39,845 nt of DNA from Escherichia phage vB_EcoP-101120B1-2, in the sequence record MZ234022.1. One strand, given 5' to 3'. The number at the start of each line of letters is the position of its first letter. The stretch's first letter is position 1. This document shows positions 1 through 39,845 of the stretch, piece after piece. The position numbers and the translations under genes are program-made. The notes below the pieces were generated by a model, which made no database searches, was not told the origin of the DNA, and saw only the letters and a list, made by a program, of their open reading frames with translations.

Positions 1-3000
1 ATGCAGGAGCAAGAGGACCGCTCTACGTGGTTCGGTTTCGGTGCGGCTACAGAAGCTGAAGTGAAGAACTCTATGGTCGGCGTGGCTATACGAGCTGGTC
101 AGACTGAGGACTCACTGGATGTCATTGGCGATGTGTTCAACCCAACCAGATGGAACAACCATAAGTGGTCTCGTGAGGAGCTAGACCAGATTCGTAACGC
201 TGGGGTTTTGCCTCAGTATTACGGAGTCATTACTGGTGGCTCTCCTCAGAACCTGACCGAGCTTATTAACTTGGCGCTTGAGAACCAGAAGTTGGACCAA
301 GAGAAGGCCAAGGCTGGGACTGGTGCTCAACTGGCGGCTGGTGTGATTGGTGCTGGCGTGGACCCTCTGACCTACGTTCCTATTGCTGGGCAGGTAGGTA
401 AAGGTGGTAAGCTAGTCAACAAGATGTTCACTGTGGCTGCTCAGTCTGGTGCTCTGGCTGGGGCATCCGAGATTGCTCGAACATCAGTTGCTGGTGGGGA
501 CGCTCATGTTGCTGAAGCTATCCTTGGTGGCGCTCTCTTCGGTGGTGGCATGACTGCTATCGCTGATGGACTAGGCAGAGCCTTAGGTCGCAACACTAAT
601 GAGTTTGCTGGTCCAGCTACACGTTTGGAAGCTCGTGAGACAGCTCGTAACGTTGATGGTCAGGACCTGTCCCGTCTCCCTATTCAGGAAGGTGAGCAGA
701 CCTTTAGTCATCAAGGCGTTAAGTTCGCTGACGTTCCGAATGAGCCGGGAAGTGTACGATTAGAAGACGGTTCAATCCTGATTGGTGAGAACCCTCTGAA
801 CCCTAAGACACGTCAAGTCTTTGACGAAGTGATTGAGCCGGAACGTGCCGCTGCTGGTGTGAACCTTGGTGGACTTACCGAGATTGGCCTGAAGCTGCTT
901 CGGTCTGAGAACCCTGAGATTCGTGGAGTAGCTGCTGACTTAGTGCGTTCACCTACTGGTATGCAGTCTGGGGCCTCAGGTAAAATCGGGACAACTGCGT
1001 CAGACGTGTTCGAGAGACTTCGTTCTGTGGACCATCGGTTCTACAACGACATCGACGATGCGGTTACTGAGGCACTAAAGGACCCGTACTTCCAGACTGC
1101 ATTCTGGCGAGACTCTGGCGCATTCCGTCAGGACATCTACCAGCGTGTGTCTATGGCTATCGAAGATGGTAGCGGAAACCTGAAGGCTGAACTGACTCCG
1201 GGAGAACTGAAAGTCTATGACCTACTGAAGAACCAGTTCGACGCCAAGCGTGAGATGATGGAGAACCCAGCGATGTTTGGTCGTCCAGACGCTCAGTCTA
1301 TCTTTCCGGGTAGCCGCTTCAAGGGAACCTACGTCCCTCATGTGTATAGCAAACAGATGAAGGAGCTGTACATCAAGGAGCTTGGGAGTCCAGAGGCGTT
1401 GCAGGAGGCCATCAAGAAGTCATGGTTGACCAGCTATGCGTCTCGACCTGAAGTCAAGAAACGCGTGGACGAGGCACTTTTAGAGGCTGACCCTACGTTG
1501 ACTCCAGAAGGACTTGCGGCTGCGGTCGATAAGTACGCCAACGATAAGGCTTATGGTATCTCTCACACCGAGCAGTTCGAGCGTTCATCCGTAATGGAGG
1601 AGAACATCAACGGGCTGGTGGGTCTGGAGAACAACAGCTTCCTTGAGGCTCGTAACCTGTTCGATAGCGATATGTCAATCGTTCTTCCTAACGGTCAGAC
1701 CTTCAGTGTCAACAACCTGCGTGAGTGGGACATGGACAAGATTGTCCCGGCCTACAACCGTCGAGTTAATGGTGATATTGCTATCATGGCTGGTACAGGC
1801 AAGACCACGAAGGAAATGAAGGACTTAGTTGAGACCATGATGAACAAGGCTGGCGATGACGGAAAGTTGAAAGGTGAAGTATCTACCTTACGTGACACCC
1901 TGAAGATTCTCACTGGTCGTGCTCGACGTGATGGTGCTGATGATGCGGCCTTCGCTACCGTGATGCGCACGATGACAGACCTATCGTTCTTCGCTAAGAA
2001 TGCCTACATGGGTGTTCAGAACTTAACGGAGATTGGTGGTATGCTGGCTCGTGGTAACGTTCGTGCACTGCTACACGGAGTACCGATGTTCCGTGACCTA
2101 GCCTTCCGTAACAAGAAGGTCGGGGCCTCGGAGATTAAGGACCTGCATAATGTTATCTTCGGTAAAGAATTAGACGACTCAATCCGTCCGTCTAAACAGG
2201 ATGTTATCGACCGTCTGCGATCTTACAGTGACCTTAGTCGTGGTACAGCTACAGCTCTGGGGACTGCTAAGTATTACACTGGTGAACTTGCAGTACGCTC
2301 TCCGTTCACTAAAGTCCTCAACGGTACGACCAACTACCTGTTAGATGCTGGACGTCAAGGCTTCCTGTCTGACATCGTGGAGCATAGCCTGACTGGTAGT
2401 AAGCGTAAGTTCGATGACCGCTGGCTGAAGACCGCTGGTATATCTGGCGAGCAGTGGAGTGGAATTAAGTCCCTAATCCGTGAGTCAGTGACTCGTGGGC
2501 CAGACGGGAAGTACACCATCAAGGATAAGAAGGCGTTCAGTCAGGACCCAAGGGCTATGGACCTGTGGCGTATGGGTGACACCATCGCTGACGAGACGTT
2601 ACTCCGGCCTCATAAGCTGTCAAACATGGACGCCAAGGCTTATGGTCCTCTCGCTAAGACTGTCCTTCAGTTTAAGAACTTCGTCATCAAGTCTATCAAT
2701 GGGAGAACCATGCGAACCTTCTATAACGCCACGAAGAACAACAGAGCGATTGACGCTGCACTGTCGACCGTGATGTCTATGGGTCTGGCTGGTATCTACT
2801 ACATGGCTCAGGCGCATGTCAAGGCTTATGCTATGCAGGATGGTCGAGACCGTGACTACCTTAAGCAAGCTCTGGACCCAACGATGATTGGCTATGCGGC
2901 CCTGTCCCGTAGTTCACATCTTGGTGGCCCACTTGGGGTAGCTAACATTCTGGGAGGCATCGCTGGATATGAGGACACTAAGATGCTCCGTTCGTCTATC

Positions 3001-3303
3001 CTACCTCGTTCTCCTACAGAGAAGCCTGAGCGTGCCATCGCGTATGGTGCAGCTACAAGTGACCCTGTGATGAATGTTGTTGGTAACTTCTTGGAGCAGG
3101 TTCCAGCTTTCGGATATGCTGCTAACGTTGGCGCTTCGGCTTACAACTTGGCTGGCTACCTCAAGGCTGATACTCGTGTCAACGAGCGTGACTACATGAC
3201 CGGGATGTATAATACGTTCCGTGAACTGGTTCCGAACGACCCCATTACCCAGAAGCTGCTGCTTGGAACGTTTGAGGAGCAAGGCATCCACATCAAGGAC
3301 TAA
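1..3303 (+). CDS. Internal virion (core/ejection) protein gp16, C-terminal 1100 aa; the ORF continues from 39261..39845 across the window boundary (circular permutation)
   Basis: Translation aligns along its length with T7 gp16 as recalled (e.g. RLEARETARN, VRSPTGMQSGASGK, GTYVPHVY, SRPEVK, LEARNLFDSD, NGTTNYLLDA, LVPNDP). Window end ...GET joins window start MQEQEDRSTWFGF in frame, matching T7 ...GETLDEYNSRSTFFGF. Confidence 0.9.
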   Translation: MQEQEDRSTWFGFGAATEAEVKNSMVGVAIRAGQTEDSLDVIGDVFNPTRWNNHKWSREELDQIRNAGVLPQYYGVITGGSPQNLTELINLALENQKLDQEKAKAGTGAQLAAGVIGAGVDPLTYVPIAGQVGKGGKLVNKMFTVAAQSGALAGASEIARTSVAGGDAHVAEAILGGALFGGGMTAIADGLGRALGRNTNEFAGPATRLEARETARNVDGQDLSRLPIQEGEQTFSHQGVKFADVPNEPGSVRLEDGSILIGENPLNPKTRQVFDEVIEPERAAAGVNLGGLTEIGLKLLRSENPEIRGVAADLVRSPTGMQSGASGKIGTTASDVFERLRSVDHRFYNDIDDAVTEALKDPYFQTAFWRDSGAFRQDIYQRVSMAIEDGSGNLKAELTPGELKVYDLLKNQFDAKREMMENPAMFGRPDAQSIFPGSRFKGTYVPHVYSKQMKELYIKELGSPEALQEAIKKSWLTSYASRPEVKKRVDEALLEADPTLTPEGLAAAVDKYANDKAYGISHTEQFERSSVMEENINGLVGLENNSFLEARNLFDSDMSIVLPNGQTFSVNNLREWDMDKIVPAYNRRVNGDIAIMAGTGKTTKEMKDLVETMMNKAGDDGKLKGEVSTLRDTLKILTGRARRDGADDAAFATVMRTMTDLSFFAKNAYMGVQNLTEIGGMLARGNVRALLHGVPMFRDLAFRNKKVGASEIKDLHNVIFGKELDDSIRPSKQDVIDRLRSYSDLSRGTATALGTAKYYTGELAVRSPFTKVLNGTTNYLLDAGRQGFLSDIVEHSLTGSKRKFDDRWLKTAGISGEQWSGIKSLIRESVTRGPDGKYTIKDKKAFSQDPRAMDLWRMGDTIADETLLRPHKLSNMDAKAYGPLAKTVLQFKNFVIKSINGRTMRTFYNATKNNRAIDAALSTVMSMGLAGIYYMAQAHVKAYAMQDGRDRDYLKQALDPTMIGYAALSRSSHLGGPLGVANILGGIAGYEDTKMLRSSILPRSPTEKPERAIAYGAATSDPVMNVVGNFLEQVPAFGYAANVGASAYNLAGYLKADTRVNERDYMTGMYNTFRELVPNDPITQKLLLGTFEEQGIHIKD

Positions 3304-3321
3304 ACTATCACTATAGGAAAC
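3299..3321 (+). promoter_or_regulatory. Phage RNA polymerase promoter (T7 phi17 position), motif TAAACTATCACTATAGGAAA
   Basis: One of 11 copies of the ACTATCACTATAGG core; lies in the gp16-gp17 intergenic gap, overlapping the gp16 stop codon. Confidence 0.75.
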
Positions 3322-3367
3322 TGGAGGCGCTACCATAGGTCTCCATTTAAATCACAAAGGAGGCATA

Positions 3368-5899
3368 ATGTCCACGATTACACAATTCCCTTCAGGAAAC
3401 ACTCAGTACAGGATTGAGTTCGACTACCTAGCCAGAACGTTTGTTGTTGTTACGCTGGTGAATAGCTCTAACCCTACCCTGAACCGTGTACTGGAAGTTG
3501 GTCGAGATTACCGATTCCTTAATCCAACGATGATTGAGATGTTGGTTGACCAATCAGGTTTCGACATAGTTCGTATTCACCGTCAGACTGGAACTGACTT
3601 AGTGGTAGATTTCAGGAATGGCTCAGTGTTGACAGCTAGTGACCTGACCAATTCAGAGCTTCAGGCTATCCATATTGCAGAAGAAGGTCGAGACCAAACG
3701 GTTGACTTAGCGAAGGAATATGCCGATGCTGCTGGTAGCTCTGCTGGCAACGCTAAGGATAGCGAGGACGAAGCACGCCGAATCGCTGCGAGTATCAGGG
3801 AAGCTGGTCTAATTGGCTATATTACCCGTCGCTCCTTCGAGAAAGGCTACAACGTTACAACATGGAGCGAGGTCCTGCTATGGGAAGAGGATGGTGATTA
3901 TTACCGCTGGGATGGTACGCTTCCAAAGAACGTTCCTGCTGGTTCAACTCCTGAAACTTCCGGTGGGATTGGATTAGGTGCGTGGGTTAGTGTTGGTGAT
4001 GCTGCTTTAAGAAGTCAGATTTCAAACCCGGAAGGGGCAATACTCTACCCGGAATTGCAGATGGCAAGATGGCGTGATGAGGGTGATGTTCGAGGCTGGG
4101 GTGCTAAAGGGGATGGTGTAACAGATAGTACGGAGAATATAGCTGCTTCACTAAGTTCTCAAAAAGCTGTCGTAGCATCAGAAGGTGTATTCTCTAGTTC
4201 TGGTATTAATAGTAATTACTGTAACTTAGACGGTAGGGGTAGTGGCGTGCTAAGTCACCGTTCCAGTACAGGTAACTACTTAGTATTTAACAATCCACGT
4301 ACAGGTCGCTTAAGTAATATTACGGTAGAAAGTAATAAGGCGACTGATACAACTCAGGGACAGCAGGTATCTCTTGCGGGTGGAAGCGATGTTACTGTAA
4401 GTGACGTTAACTTCTCAAACGTTAAAGGTACTGGTTTCAGTTTAATCGCATACCCTAATGATGCGCCACCTGATGGACTTATGATTAAAGGCATTCGAGG
4501 TAGCTATTCCGGCTATGCTACTAATAAGGCAGCCGGATGCGTACTTGCTGACTCCTCAGTTAACTCCCTCATAGATAACGTTATTGCTAAGAACTACCCT
4601 CAGTTCGGAGCAGTAGAGTTGAAAGGTACAGCCAGTTACAACATAGTCAGTAATGTTATAGGGGCAGATTGCCAGCATGTAACTTACAACGGCACTGAAG
4701 GGTCAATAGCTCCTTCTAATAACATTATAAAGGGGGTGATGGCTAATAACCCTAAGTATGCAGCGGTTGTTGCAGGCAAAGGAAATACTAACTTAATCTC
4801 AGACGTGCTCGTAGATTACTCAACTTCTGATGCTAGCCAGGCTCATGGCGTTACCGTAGAAGGGTCTGATAACGTCATAAATAATGTGCTTATGTCAGGA
4901 TGTGATGGTACTAACTCTTTAGGACAAAGGCAGACTGCTACAATTGCACGCTTTATAGGTACAGCTAATAACAACTATGCGTCTGTATTTCCTAGCTACA
5001 GTGCTACAGGTGTTATTACTTTCGAATCCGGCTCTACCCGTAACTTCGTAGAGGTAAAACACCCTGGCAGGAGAAACGACCTTCTCAGTTCTGCTAGTAC
5101 TATTGACGGTGCAGCTACTATTGACGGCACTAGTAATAGTAACGTAGTGCACGCACCTGCCTTAGGGCAGTACATAGGTAGTATGTCAGGTAGGTTCGAA
5201 TGGTGGATTAAGTCCATGTCACTCCCTTCAGGCGTTCTTACTTCTGCTGATAAGTACAGAATGCTTGGGGATGGTGCTGTGTCATTAGCTGTAGGTGGTG
5301 GTGCATCTTCTCAAGTTCGACTATTTACTTCTGATGGTATTTATCGGACAGTGTCCCTCACCAACGGCAACGTGCGTCTTCCTACCAGTAGCACAGGTTA
5401 TTTGCAGTTAGGTTCTAATGCAATGACCCCAGATAGTACTAATACATACGCATTAGGTTCCGCAAGTCGAGCATGGTCTGGCGGTTTTACTCAATCAGCA
5501 TTCACTGTTGTCTCAGATGCTAGGGATAAAACAGAGCCTCTTAATATCTCAGATGCTTTACTGGATGCTTGGTCTGAAGTTGACTTTGTGCAGTTTCAGT
5601 ACTTGGACCGAATTGAGGAGAAGGGTGCAGACTCAGCTAGATGGCACTTCGGCATCATCGCTCAGCGAGCTAAGGAGGCCTTCGAACGTCACGGTATAGA
5701 TGCACATCGCTATGGCTTCCTGTGCTTCGACAGTTGGGATGATGTATACGAGGAAGATGCCAATGGCTATCGTAAACTGATTACACCAGCAGGTTCCCGC
5801 TACGGTATTCGTTACGAGGAAGTACTGATATTAGAGGCTGCGTTGATGCGGCGTACTATTAAGCGTATGCAGGAAGCATTAGCTGTTATGTCTAAGTGA
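3368..5899 (+). CDS. Tailspike protein (gp17 homolog): T7-like N-terminal adaptor domain, pectate-lyase-like beta-helix depolymerase body, C-terminal intramolecular chaperone domain
   Basis: SD CAAAGGAGG upstream of ATG. N-terminus EFDYLARTFVVVTLV resembles T7 gp17 FEYLARKFVVVTLI. Central motif WGAKGDGVTDSTENIAAS is typical of pectate-lyase-3 beta-helix tailspikes. C-terminus carries SDARDK (Ser716, Lys721) in the spacing of the peptidase S74 Ser-Lys dyad. Confidence 0.85.
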   Translation: MSTITQFPSGNTQYRIEFDYLARTFVVVTLVNSSNPTLNRVLEVGRDYRFLNPTMIEMLVDQSGFDIVRIHRQTGTDLVVDFRNGSVLTASDLTNSELQAIHIAEEGRDQTVDLAKEYADAAGSSAGNAKDSEDEARRIAASIREAGLIGYITRRSFEKGYNVTTWSEVLLWEEDGDYYRWDGTLPKNVPAGSTPETSGGIGLGAWVSVGDAALRSQISNPEGAILYPELQMARWRDEGDVRGWGAKGDGVTDSTENIAASLSSQKAVVASEGVFSSSGINSNYCNLDGRGSGVLSHRSSTGNYLVFNNPRTGRLSNITVESNKATDTTQGQQVSLAGGSDVTVSDVNFSNVKGTGFSLIAYPNDAPPDGLMIKGIRGSYSGYATNKAAGCVLADSSVNSLIDNVIAKNYPQFGAVELKGTASYNIVSNVIGADCQHVTYNGTEGSIAPSNNIIKGVMANNPKYAAVVAGKGNTNLISDVLVDYSTSDASQAHGVTVEGSDNVINNVLMSGCDGTNSLGQRQTATIARFIGTANNNYASVFPSYSATGVITFESGSTRNFVEVKHPGRRNDLLSSASTIDGAATIDGTSNSNVVHAPALGQYIGSMSGRFEWWIKSMSLPSGVLTSADKYRMLGDGAVSLAVGGGASSQVRLFTSDGIYRTVSLTNGNVRLPTSSTGYLQLGSNAMTPDSTNTYALGSASRAWSGGFTQSAFTVVSDARDKTEPLNISDALLDAWSEVDFVQFQYLDRIEEKGADSARWHFGIIAQRAKEAFERHGIDAHRYGFLCFDSWDDVYEEDANGYRKLITPAGSRYGIRYEEVLILEAALMRRTIKRMQEALAVMSK
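5516..5896 (+). other. Predicted auto-cleaved C-terminal intramolecular chaperone domain of the tailspike (residues 717-843); cleavage predicted after Ser716
   Basis: SDARDK motif with Ser and Lys five residues apart, followed by a roughly 125-aa domain, as in the endosialidase/T5 L-shaped fibre chaperone domains (recalled from literature). Confidence 0.5.
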
Positions 5900-6123
5900 G
5901 TAATACTGGTACGGTATTTCGCACAATGAAATCGTTGAACACACTGACGAGGAGGGTAATGTCACTACTACGGAAGAACCTGTATACACCGAGGTGGTTA
6001 TTCACGAAGAGGGTGAGGAGTGGGGGTGTTCGGCCTGACGGAATTTTCTTTGCTGAAGCCGCTTATCAGAGAAGAAAACTGGAAAGAATCGAAGCCAGAC
6101 TTTCTGCTCTTGAACAGAAGTAA
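5896..6123 (+). CDS. Hypothetical basic protein between tailspike and holin; start uncertain (GTG 5896, ATG 5926 or ATG 5959)
   Basis: ORF from the track. Arg/Lys-rich with a C-terminal coiled-coil-like segment (RRKLERIEARLSALEQK). No well-spaced SD for any candidate start; T7 has no gene here. Confidence 0.25.
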   Translation: MSNTGTVFRTMKSLNTLTRRVMSLLRKNLYTPRWLFTKRVRSGGVRPDGIFFAEAAYQRRKLERIEARLSALEQK

Positions 6124-6233
6124 TAAACAAAACCATTTTGCCATTAGGTTGGTGGGGTAGAGACTAACTACACGCTAACCAACGTATGTAACAACTTTGG
6201 GTCACGGACGACCCGCTTTAAACTGGAGGTTTT

Positions 6234-6428
6234 ATGATTGAGTTAGACTTCAAGAATGAGGTCCTTAAAGCCTCTCCTATCGTCGGGACCGCTGCGGCTG
6301 ATGGTGCCAGTCGGTTCTTCTTCGGACTTACACTGAACGAATGGTTCTACGTTGCAGCTATCGCGTACACCGTTGTCCAGATTGGTGTGCTAGTCTACAA
6401 AACGATTAAAGGAGGTGGTAAAACATGA
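6234..6428 (+). CDS. Type II holin (gp17.5 homolog)
   Basis: MIELDFKNEVLKASPIVGTAAADGASRFFFGLTLNEWFYVAAIAYTVVQIG closely matches T7 gp17.5 as recalled; single hydrophobic segment; SD GGAGG. Confidence 0.85.
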   Translation: MIELDFKNEVLKASPIVGTAAADGASRFFFGLTLNEWFYVAAIAYTVVQIGVLVYKTIKGGGKT

Positions 6429-6688
6429 CGCAGATGGACTTAGAGAAGTTCCTCTTGATGCTGGATACTGAACGTGCTAGACTCATGCTGCAAGACCTGC
6501 GGGATGACTCTAAGCGTTCACCTCAGCTTTACAACGCCATTGAGAAGCTACTGGCTCGTCACAACTTCGTGCTAAGTAAGGTGTCTGTGGACGAGAAGAC
6601 GCTGGCTGATATGGAGGCCCTGAACGCAGAGTACGATAAGGTGCTTTCAGCGACTGAGGATAATGACACCGGGTATGGCGTTCAATAA
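6425..6688 (+). CDS. Terminase small subunit / DNA maturation protein A (gp18 homolog)
   Basis: 87 aa at the T7 gene 18 position; FLLMLDTERARLMLQDL...SPQLYNAIEKLLARH resembles T7 gp18 ITFLEMLDTAMAQRMLADL...SPQLYNAINKLLDRH. Confidence 0.85.
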   Translation: MTQMDLEKFLLMLDTERARLMLQDLRDDSKRSPQLYNAIEKLLARHNFVLSKVSVDEKTLADMEALNAEYDKVLSATEDNDTGYGVQ

Positions 6689-6692
6689 GTGT

Positions 6693-6736
6693 TAGACTCA
6701 AGGTCATTACTATATGTAGTGGCCTTTATGGTTAAC
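6693..6736 (+). promoter_or_regulatory. Conserved RNA hairpin, late family copy 1 (candidate RNase III processing site, T7 R18.5 position)
   Basis: TAGACTCAAGGTCAT...GTGGCCTTTATG shared with 16336..16379 and 23562..23602. Stem AAGGUCA/UGGCCUU (one G-U) is conserved while the loops differ. Confidence 0.45.
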
Positions 6737-6789
6737 ACTAACTAGTGGAGGAGACTCTACGTGAAATCTGATAAACCGGGAGGGCAACT

Positions 6790-7233
6790 ATGCTCGAATT
6801 TTTAAAGAGAGCGGCTCCGTGGTTACTTGCAGCAGTGATGTTTGCTGGTGGCTACCACACCGCTAACAATAAGTGGGAGGCTAAGGTAAATGCAGAATAC
6901 ACCTCGAATCTTAAGGCATCGGAGGATACAAGGCTTGCTGTCCAAGCTGAAGTCAACAAAGTGTCCAAACGGTTTCAGGACGAAATGTCCTCGCTGGAAG
7001 GCAGCACTGACAGGATTATTGCTGACCTTCAGTCTGACAATAAGCGGCTGCGCATCCGAGTCAAACCTACGAGTGGAACCACGCAAAGTGACGGTCGATG
7101 CGTCATTGATGGTTACGCCGAACTTGACGAACGAGATGCTAAACGTCTTATCTCCATCGGACTGAAAGGGGACGCTTGGATTAAAGCACTACAGGATACT
7201 ATCCGCAAACTTCAACAAGACAAGGAGAAATGA
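6790..7233 (+). CDS. Rz-like i-spanin (gp18.5 homolog)
   Basis: MLEFLKRAAPWLLAAVMFAGG N-terminal TM segment; ...STDRIIADLQSDNKRLRIRVK...DERDAKRLI...GDAWIKALQDTIRKLQ matches T7 gp18.5 as recalled. Confidence 0.85.
   Translation: MLEFLKRAAPWLLAAVMFAGGYHTANNKWEAKVNAEYTSNLKASEDTRLAVQAEVNKVSKRFQDEMSSLEGSTDRIIADLQSDNKRLRIRVKPTSGTTQSDGRCVIDGYAELDERDAKRLISIGLKGDAWIKALQDTIRKLQQDKEK
6890..7165 (+). CDS. Rz1-like o-spanin lipoprotein (gp18.7 homolog), embedded in the +1 frame of the Rz gene
   Basis: Contains lipobox-like LTISGC followed by ASES...VDASLMVTPNLTNEMLNV, matching T7 gp18.7. Embedded Rz/Rz1 architecture. Exact start uncertain. Confidence 0.65.
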   Translation: MQNTPRILRHRRIQGLLSKLKSTKCPNGFRTKCPRWKAALTGLLLTFSLTISGCASESNLRVEPRKVTVDASLMVTPNLTNEMLNVLSPSD

Positions 7234-7670
7234 TGCTCAGTGATTCGTATTTCTATGATGAGTCCAGTAAGTCTGGCCTGAAGTCCCTGCGTTCTGGTAA
7301 GGATGTGGGGTGTGTGGGAAACCACGGGTATTATCAGGTAGGAACTCGACGTCATGGACTCCTGCTGGCCCATAGAGTCGTCTGGGAGCTAACCAACGGT
7401 CCTATACCAGAAGGGATGGAGATTGACCATATCGACCGCTGCCGGACTAACAACAGGCTGGACAACCTCCGGCTAGTTACTTCAAGCGAGAACTCCTGCA
7501 ACACCTCAGGACATTCCGACTCAAAGACTGGAGTTAAGAACATATCGTTCCATCAGAATGGCTACGCTATCGAGGTCATGCGTAAGGGGGTCCGTATGCG
7601 AACAACACGTCCTACTTTAGAGGAGGCTATCTCTGTCCGGGACCTAATGCTGGAGGGACTCTATGTCTAA
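7230..7670 (+). CDS. HNH homing-endonuclease-like protein inserted between the spanin and large-terminase genes
   Basis: Motif [30 protein letters not shown] (His-Asn-Asn HNH core with Cys ligands); ATGATG start after SD AAGGAGA; overlaps the gp19 start by 8 nt. Absent at this position in T7. Confidence 0.75.
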
Positions 7671-10381: not shown

Positions 10382-10507
10382 ATCGACCTACGGTTAATAG
10401 ACACAAGGATATAGACTTAAGGTCTAATACATGTTAGTCAAAGACTATATCCTCTTAGTCACTATGGGGCCGACGATAGCTTAATCAATATTATTTAAGA
10501 TTACCTA

Positions 10508-39256: not shown

Positions 39257-39260
39257 CATA

Positions 39261-39845
39261 ATGGCGACTCGTGGTATTCGCAATAACAATCCGGGTAACA
39301 TCCGGGTAAGTAAGGACCAATGGGAAGGAATGACTGGAGATGATGGCGCATTCGTCACCTTCGATAGTCCAGAGTCTGGCGTCCGAGCTTTAGGTAAAAA
39401 CCTGCTGTCCTACGGTCGCCAAGGTTATGATTCCATCGAGAAGATTATCAACAGATGGGCACCTCCTAACGAGAACGACACTAAGGCTTATATTGACTCA
39501 GTGGTGGCTGCAACTGGTATTCCAGCTACACAGAGTCTCGACCTATCGGACCCTGACACCCTGTCTTCTCTGGCACAAGCTATCAGCTTCCATGAGACAG
39601 GCTCACGGTACGACCCTGAAGTCTATCAGAAGGGAGTCGCACGGGCACTCAACGGCATTAGCCCAAAGACTCCACCAGTAAGCGCTAACGTATTTGACGC
39701 ACTCACGGAAGGACTCAAGGCTAAACCTAAAGTAGCTCTGGGTGAGAACCTTCCGACCGCTGCTGGTCTGAACATTGAGGGTCAAGCACCTGAATCTCCC
39801 AACGAATCGTTCGGTGAGATGTTCTATAAGGCTACTGGAGAGACC
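39261..39845 (+). CDS. Internal virion protein gp16, N-terminal 195 aa (ORF continues at position 1); this domain does not resemble the T7 gp16 lytic transglycosylase domain
   Basis: SD AAGGAG upstream of ATG; open to the window end and joins 1..3303 in frame. MATRGIRNNNPGNIRVSKDQWEGMTGDDGAFVTFDSPESGVRALGKNLLSYGRQGYDSIEKIINRWAPP... lacks the T7 AWTESRF motif. Confidence 0.85.
   Translation, partial: MATRGIRNNNPGNIRVSKDQWEGMTGDDGAFVTFDSPESGVRALGKNLLSYGRQGYDSIEKIINRWAPPNENDTKAYIDSVVAATGIPATQSLDLSDPDTLSSLAQAISFHETGSRYDPEVYQKGVARALNGISPKTPPVSANVFDALTEGLKAKPKVALGENLPTAAGLNIEGQAPESPNESFGEMFYKATGET

Follow-up and report, generated by a model that had tools for sequence, protein, structure and literature searches.

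Escherichia phage vB_EcoP-101120B1-2 (MZ234022.1) was analyzed over a stretch of 39,845 nucleotides (nt), referred to here as the window, and we focus on the tailspike gene that occupies its gene 17 position. From the N terminus to the C terminus, the 843-amino-acid (aa) precursor is laid out as a T7 gp17-type tail-attachment domain, a Tail_spike_N domain, a predicted parallel beta-helix, a stalk, and a Peptidase_S74 intramolecular chaperone (Table 1). An initial annotation, made from the sequence alone, had reported this open reading frame (ORF), its length, and a set of motifs, and all are present exactly as described; among them, WGAKGDGVTDSTENIAAS lies at aa 243 to 260 and SDARDK at aa 716 to 721 (codons 5513 to 5530). 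The coding sequence (CDS) is labeled "hypothetical protein" in GenBank. Its DNA does not differ at any position from CDS 002 of Escherichia phage vB_EcoP-101120B2 (Kayfunavirus; 100% identity), which was named "K5 lyase" in the paper describing these phages (PMC8614997), and about 12 further Kayfunavirus genomes match the gene at 96 to 99% DNA identity. PDB entry 9vvr, "Tail spike protein" (843 aa, 18 chains), matches over the full length at 1816 bits and is about 97% identical; a literature search for 9vvr found no paper mentioning the entry. PHROG 14895, "tail spike protein," matches aa 209 to 843 (E 0), and the 843-aa architecture recurs in 17 protein clusters at 93 to 100% identity, all but three of them on contigs of about 37 to 40 kb. 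The protein is thus already known, being both named in print and represented in the PDB. We put the probability at roughly 93% that it is a K5 (heparosan) lyase of the KflA type with a self-cleaving S74 chaperone, mounted on a T7/K1F-type tail anchor. What this analysis adds is a fuller domain map, a corrected cleavage position, and a mapped recombination scar.

The evidence for the catalytic domain comes from the K5 lyase KflA of coliphage K5A. The solved KflA structure (PDB 2x3h) matches aa 242 to 716 with an E value of 1e-287 and about 97% identity, and the complete K5A KflA protein is 94.8% identical over aa 244 to 843, with 31 substitutions that all fall in variable columns. At the DNA level, kflA (Y10025) matches nt 762 to 2518 of the tailspike gene at 96.6%. 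A pectate-lyase-like Pfam match over aa 241 to 372 stays below threshold. We built an AlphaFold model with a 50-sequence alignment and discarded the single-sequence model (mean predicted local distance difference test [pLDDT] score of 31.8). The retained model has a pLDDT of about 90 over aa 240 to 560, where the strands are short and regular, as in a beta-helix, a pLDDT of 75 to 87 for the Tail_spike_N domain, and a long C-terminal helix at aa 816 to 840. The modeled beta-helix is single-stranded and parallel, and its handedness is taken from homology. A Foldseek comparison with the PDB returned 2x3h as the top match (E 9e-53; template modeling [TM] score of 0.71 on the target), followed by the CBA120 tailspikes, the chaperones 3gw6, 3gud, and 4uw8, the Sf6, HK620, and phi29 tailspikes, and pectate-lyase-fold enzymes; the fold library closes at 2026-04-08, and 9vvr is absent from it. 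The beta-helix depolymerase and the S74 domain that the initial annotation had proposed for checking by structure prediction were accordingly recovered, the former as a modeled fold and the latter as chaperone structures among the Foldseek matches.

To assess the state of the active site, we built an alignment of 18 K5-lyase relatives, the most divergent at about 50% identity. The tailspike keeps every one of the 172 family-invariant columns. E417 and K419 of a GAVELK motif and H493 are invariant in all 18 sequences, and Y440 is kept in all but one; these putative catalytic residues were picked by family conservation, not from published mutagenesis. Ser490, where KflA and 9vvr have Arg, was considered as an inactivating change and rejected, as the column varies among R, S, K, M, E, and T within the family. 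The catalytic apparatus is very probably intact, judging from this alignment. The E. coli K5 capsule, heparosan, is bound and degraded by KflA (PMC7885116; PMC5380687). Because of the near identity of the lyase and the naming of the CDS as K5 lyase, we predict that the phage uses the heparosan capsule of E. coli K5 as its receptor and cuts it by beta-elimination. The beta-helix would bind the capsule (-4GlcA-beta1,4-GlcNAc-alpha1-) and cleave it so that the virion tunnels to the outer membrane. The choices between glycanase and lyase, and between capsule and O antigen, had previously been left open; homology now settles on the lyase and on the capsule side, and specifically on a K5 heparosan lyase.

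The lyase sits on an anchor of a different kind. Pfam Phage_T7_tail (PF03906) matches aa 10 to 115 (E 2e-15; 57.2 bits versus a 25.2-bit cut-off), and the solved T7 gp17 N termini 7boz, 8dsp, and 8e4g match aa 6 to 116, bearing out the likeness to the T7 gp17 attachment domain noted earlier for the first 150 or so residues. This N terminus (aa 1 to 150) is 96 to 100% identical to that of the K1F-type endosialidase. The earlier domain map lacked the Tail_spike_N domain, which Pfam places at aa 156 to 211 (PF18668; E 3e-19), after the T7-type anchor and ahead of the beta-helix. TSP1 of CBA120 (4oj5) matches aa 151 to 265, and the segment is common to K1F-like, Gamaleyavirus, and other tailspikes. 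We suggest that the anchor would dock the spike trimer on the tail and that the Tail_spike_N domain and neck would follow it.

KflA is a trimeric beta-helical lyase that continues into a triple-stranded beta-helix (PMC8822698), and the corresponding stalk here is 86 to 100% identical to that of KflA per 30-aa window. Beyond it, Pfam Peptidase_S74 (PF13884) matches aa 716 to 776 (E 5e-14; 52.7 bits versus a 22-bit cut-off), and the released chaperone domains of phi29 gp12 (3gud; E 3.5e-22) and endoNF (3gw6; E 1.3e-18) match aa 716 to 834. Ser716 and Lys721 align with S911 and K916 of the K1F-type endosialidase (endoNF) and with S505 and K510 of KflA. The Lys lies five residues after the Ser at the start of the chaperone domain, as in the S74 dyad, and the surrounding motif SDARDKTEP is intact. 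An S74 chaperone beginning at SDARDK, as proposed initially, is therefore upheld as a domain, and its length is 128 aa instead of about 125. The role of the Ser-Lys dyad is documented in endoNF-type chaperones (PMC8326128, PMC3828593), as is cleavage N-terminal of the dyad Ser (PMC8326128, PMC3828593, PMC4690869). The deposited 2x3h chain stops at the residue aligned with Ser716, and ORF46 of K1-5 is listed with a 67-kDa precursor and a 52-kDa mature form (PMC5380687). By analogy, cleavage N-terminal of Ser716 is predicted to yield a mature spike of aa 1 to 715 (75.5 kDa) and a chaperone of aa 716 to 843 (14.9 kDa), which corrects the formerly proposed mature form of about 716 aa to 715 aa. 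In the mechanism we propose, aa 566 to 715 would form an intertwined stalk whose trimerization is nucleated by the chaperone, and the chaperone would then remove itself: Lys721 would activate Ser716, which would attack the Val715-Ser716 bond and leave the 715-aa spike. From homologues, we infer that the spike forms trimers, that it acts as a lyase on heparosan, and that it cleaves itself at exactly this bond.

Several observations weigh against this assignment, and two of the alternatives draw on them. The monomer model is unreliable at aa 1 to 132 and 568 to 655, although low pLDDT in the latter segment is expected in a monomer model because the KflA counterpart is intertwined between subunits. 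The 31 changes from K5A KflA, though none is in a family-invariant column, might have shifted the activity to another capsule or left a spike that binds heparosan without cleaving it. Breeding experiments accumulated point mutations in this tailspike CDS, and the same paper gives host ranges while never mentioning capsule types and reports no correlation with K type (PMC8614997). We consider such a loss or shift highly unlikely, given about 97% identity to the crystallized enzyme across the catalytic domain and the absence of any change at a family-invariant position; positions 490 and 613 vary in other members of the family too.

The residue preceding the scissile bond raises a separate doubt. 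It is Val715 here and Thr in KflA, endoNF, and T5 pb1, and the Thr side chain (T910 in endoNF) has been proposed to help kink and distort the chain at the scissile bond (PMC3828593). With the T715V replacement relative to KflA, the S74 domain might aid folding and yet stay uncleaved, so that the virion would carry the 843-aa form; 9vvr is likewise deposited as the full 843-aa sequence, which does not show the modeled extent. Set against this are the intact Ser-Lys dyad and SDARDKTEP motif and the lack of conservation at the preceding residue: MyRF proteins have Pro there, and many K5-lyase relatives have V, I, or L. An uncleaved chaperone thus strikes us as improbable, with odds of about one in twenty. 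A further point concerns the stalk Arg, which is proposed to sense stalk folding from position -14 in endoNF and T5 (PMC8326128, PMC4690869). It is found at -15 here (R701), versus -14 in endoNF (R897) and T5 (R1250). Arg at -15 is also present in KflA and in the 820-aa relatives discussed below, and the register was read from the sequence alignment. In every feature examined in sequence and model, the tailspike fits the KflA K5-lyase family.

We evaluated the origin of this chimeric architecture by assessing which lineages match successive parts of the locus. Blastn matches window positions 2000 to 4126 to K1F gene 16 and the first 759 nt of gene 17 (95.9%), positions 4121 to 5903 to kflA (96.1% DNA identity), and positions 5910 to 7227 again to K1F, from gene 17 codon ~995 through the holin, small terminase, and Rz genes (94.3%). 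The K5 lyase gene of Gamaleyavirus UE-S5b matches positions 3982 to 5915 at 92.7% overall and is identical across both junction regions. A K5-lyase cassette has taken the place of the receptor-binding part in a K1F-type gene 17. We place the left crossover at aa 205 to 253 (positions 3982 to 4126) because the DNA matches of the K1F, UE-S5b, and kflA lineages all overlap there; this shared segment closes with GAxGDG, the motif at the start of the beta-helix. On the right, the crossover falls in a TACGGT microhomology at positions 5910 to 5915, 10 nt past the lyase stop codon.

What remains of the displaced gene lies immediately downstream. By tblastn, K1F-type aa 998 to 1033 are found in one frame (94%) and aa 1033 to 1064 in the next (97%), and the relic is disrupted by two 1-nt indels. 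GenBank annotates positions 5959 to 6123, within an ORF at 5896 to 6123, as a "tail fiber protein"; this small product is a pseudogene fragment. As the residues of the relic belong to the old chaperone domain, the displaced spike was of the K1F type without necessarily having been an endosialidase. The same right junction occurs in sister K5-lyase Kayfunaviruses, which have lost different parts of the relic through deletions that run from one short direct repeat to another. Between the stop codon and the holin gene, 22664UKE3-2 has 183 nt and IME177 and R1 have 104 nt each, compared with 334 nt in the present phage. Because the sister phages share the junction and differ in the relic deletions, the sequences point to a single ancestral acquisition of the cassette followed by decay of the relic.

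Both the anchor and the relic might suggest that the spike itself is an endosialidase, a K1 capsule depolymerase like K1F gene 17, since its N-terminal 240 aa are 86 to 100% identical per 30-aa window to the K1F-type endosialidase and a fragment of K1F-type gene 17 lies just downstream. This identity drops, however, to 14 to 40% per 30-aa window over aa 271 to 720, comprising the beta-helix and stalk. The catalytic region is that of KflA, and the downstream fragment is only the frameshifted relic of a chaperone end. The K1F-type endosialidase P0046 has PF12217, PF12218, PF12219, and PF12195, whereas no endosialidase Pfam domain was found in the tailspike, which also lacks the Asp-box (S-x-D-x-G-x-x-[WFY]). 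We rejected the endosialidase reading on these three grounds (Asp-box, Pfam domains, and catalytic region) and assign it a negligible probability, in agreement with the initial annotation.

The motif WGAKGDG(V/S)xD(D/S)T occupies aa 243 to 256 (positions 4094 to 4135) and recurs at the equivalent place in the K1F-type endosialidase P0046 and in unrelated Kayfunavirus tailspikes (phage pO2 P0048). It had been offered as a signature of the beta-helix, and the beta-helix itself stands. From its distribution, the motif seems to mark a boundary between modules, shared by these spikes and used for recombination, and not the fold downstream.

The tailspike gene also appears to carry its own expression signals. 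A phage-RNA-polymerase promoter-like element lies directly upstream of it, overlapping the stop codon of gene 16, and belongs to a family of about 10 sites (Table 1). The core TCACTATAGG has nine exact copies on the plus strand, and allowing one mismatch gives 12 matches on both strands versus 2.4 expected, a count reached in 0 of 100 shuffles. An extended consensus, CTWAACTATCACTATAGG, is common to all plus-strand copies except that at 10459. Because the upstream element, a positional analogue of T7 phi17, resembles the promoter family of a T7-like phage, the tailspike gene probably has its own late promoter. We found no sigma-70 promoter or intrinsic terminator in positions 5850 to 6300.

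The window covers a whole T7-like genome in circularly permuted form. It opens within gene 16, the internal virion protein gene with a transglycosylase domain, which spans the window ends (positions 1 to 3303 and 39260 to 39845); the ORF at 1 to 3303 matches PHROG 342 from profile position 214 onward only. The genome encodes an RNA polymerase, a ligase, a primase-helicase, a DNA polymerase, a portal, a capsid protein, and internal virion proteins, and its tail proteins match T7 gp11 and gp12 positions. A search of the ORFs of 180 aa or longer found neither another tailspike gene nor an adaptor gene. The tailspike is the only receptor-binding gene of this K1F-like, T7-family coliphage of the genus Kayfunavirus. 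Further downstream, a 146-aa HNH homing endonuclease ORF (positions 7230 to 7670, plus strand; PHROG 99, E 7.5e-45) lies between the Rz spanin and large terminase genes and overlaps both by a few bases. We consider it a mobile insertion because K1F has a 29-nt spacer at the same place (L005 5854-5884).

Table 1. Features of the tailspike locus and related elements in the window (positions in nt; residues numbered in the 843-aa precursor)
Feature	Position	Strand	Residues	Basis or remark
Promoter-like element for phage RNA polymerase, ACTAAACTATCACTATAGGAAAC	3299..3321	+		Overlaps gene 16 stop TAA (3301-3303)
Ribosome-binding site, AAGGAGG	3357..3363	+		Read from sequence; 4 nt upstream of ATG 3368
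Tailspike gene, gene 17 position	3368..5899	+	1-843	ATG-start ORF; precursor of 90.4 kDa
T7 gp17-type N-terminal tail-attachment domain, then helical linker	3368..3817	+	1-150	PF03906 and PDB matches
Tail_spike_N (TSP1/Gp66-type) small beta domain and neck helix	3818..4099	+	151-244	Pfam, PDB, model
Predicted parallel beta-helix catalytic domain, K5 (heparosan) lyase	4100..5062	+	245-565	2x3h, model, Foldseek
C-terminal stalk, ending at Val715	5063..5512	+	566-715	KflA alignment, 2x3h match
Peptidase_S74 C-terminal intramolecular chaperone, 128 aa, 14.9 kDa	5513..5899	+	716-843 and stop	PF13884, PDB
Ser716 codon	5513-5515	+	716	Read from sequence
Lys721 codon	5528-5530	+	721	Read from sequence
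Relic of 3' end of K1F-type gene 17 (codons ~995-1064, chaperone end)	5910..6123	+		tblastn, blastn
Further promoter-like cores	9533, 13003, 16324, 18191, 19156, 27283, 30104, 31084, 35867	+		Consensus CTWAACTATCACTATAGGRA

The tailspike gene sets the host range, and its assignment predicts infection of K5-encapsulated E. coli, including uropathogenic and Nissle 1917-type strains. The recombinant spike is a predicted heparosan depolymerase. It could serve as a tool enzyme for glycosaminoglycans and help in matching phages for therapy, two applications for which KflA is already established; the practical gain here is better annotation. The cassette junctions and the decaying relic provide a clean, datable example of a capsule-specificity switch from a K1F-type spike to K5, in which one homologous and one microhomology crossover were combined in a T7-like phage. 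Heparosan is the unsulfated backbone of mammalian heparan sulfate. K5 lyase has been reported as active on unsulfated heparan sulfate domains, in work cited in PMC7885116, and tethering to heparan sulfate has been proposed for phage ES17, whose fiber only distantly resembles KflA. By analogy, the tailspike might also tether or position the virion on heparan-sulfate proteoglycans of the host mucosa, a speculative and rather doubtful proposal that, if true, would give K5-lyase Kayfunaviruses an advantage in gut and urinary-tract predation.

Comparison with known systems places the tailspike among relatives that share its catalytic part or its anchor. Among them are 820-aa "phage tail proteins" of E. 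coli chromosomes or prophages (P0041, P0042), which have a homologous beta-helix, stalk, S74 domain, and dyad (58.7% identity over aa 223 to 836) but are far more divergent, carry a different N terminus, and are encoded in bacterial genomes; we take them to be probably of the ElmA type of K5 lyase. Among chaperone-domain proteins, ElmA is given as one example of the K5-lyase family (PMC8326128). In Kayfunavirus ZG49 (L001 4001-7241), the annotation divides a homologous K5-lyase spike into two CDSs (686 aa and 386 aa). Its match to the tailspike gene ends at nt 2050, pointing to either a split gene or another C-terminal end. The 784-aa K5 lyase of Gamaleyavirus UE-S5b shares aa 156 to 843, including Tail_spike_N, at 91.8% identity, but UE-S5b is an N4-like phage of 73 kb with a separate, adjoining endosialidase gene, and its lyase has a different N-terminal anchor. 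EndoNF, the product of K1F gene 17, is found in the same genus and gene position, with the closely similar N terminus and the homologous S74 chaperone described above; its catalytic part is a sialidase beta-propeller for polysialic acid (K1), in contrast to the predicted beta-helix lyase of the present spike. KflA of K5A (2x3h; Y10025) and ORF46 of K1-5 have the same beta-helix, stalk, S74 chaperone, and Ser-Lys dyad. KflA is a 632-aa protein whose short N terminus docks on an SP6-type adaptor protein, whereas the lyase here is fused to a 243-aa T7/K1F-type anchor with a Tail_spike_N domain and has Val in place of Thr before the scissile bond among its 31 substitutions. PDB 9vvr has the same length and the same architecture from end to end, differing from the present spike by about 27 scattered substitutions.

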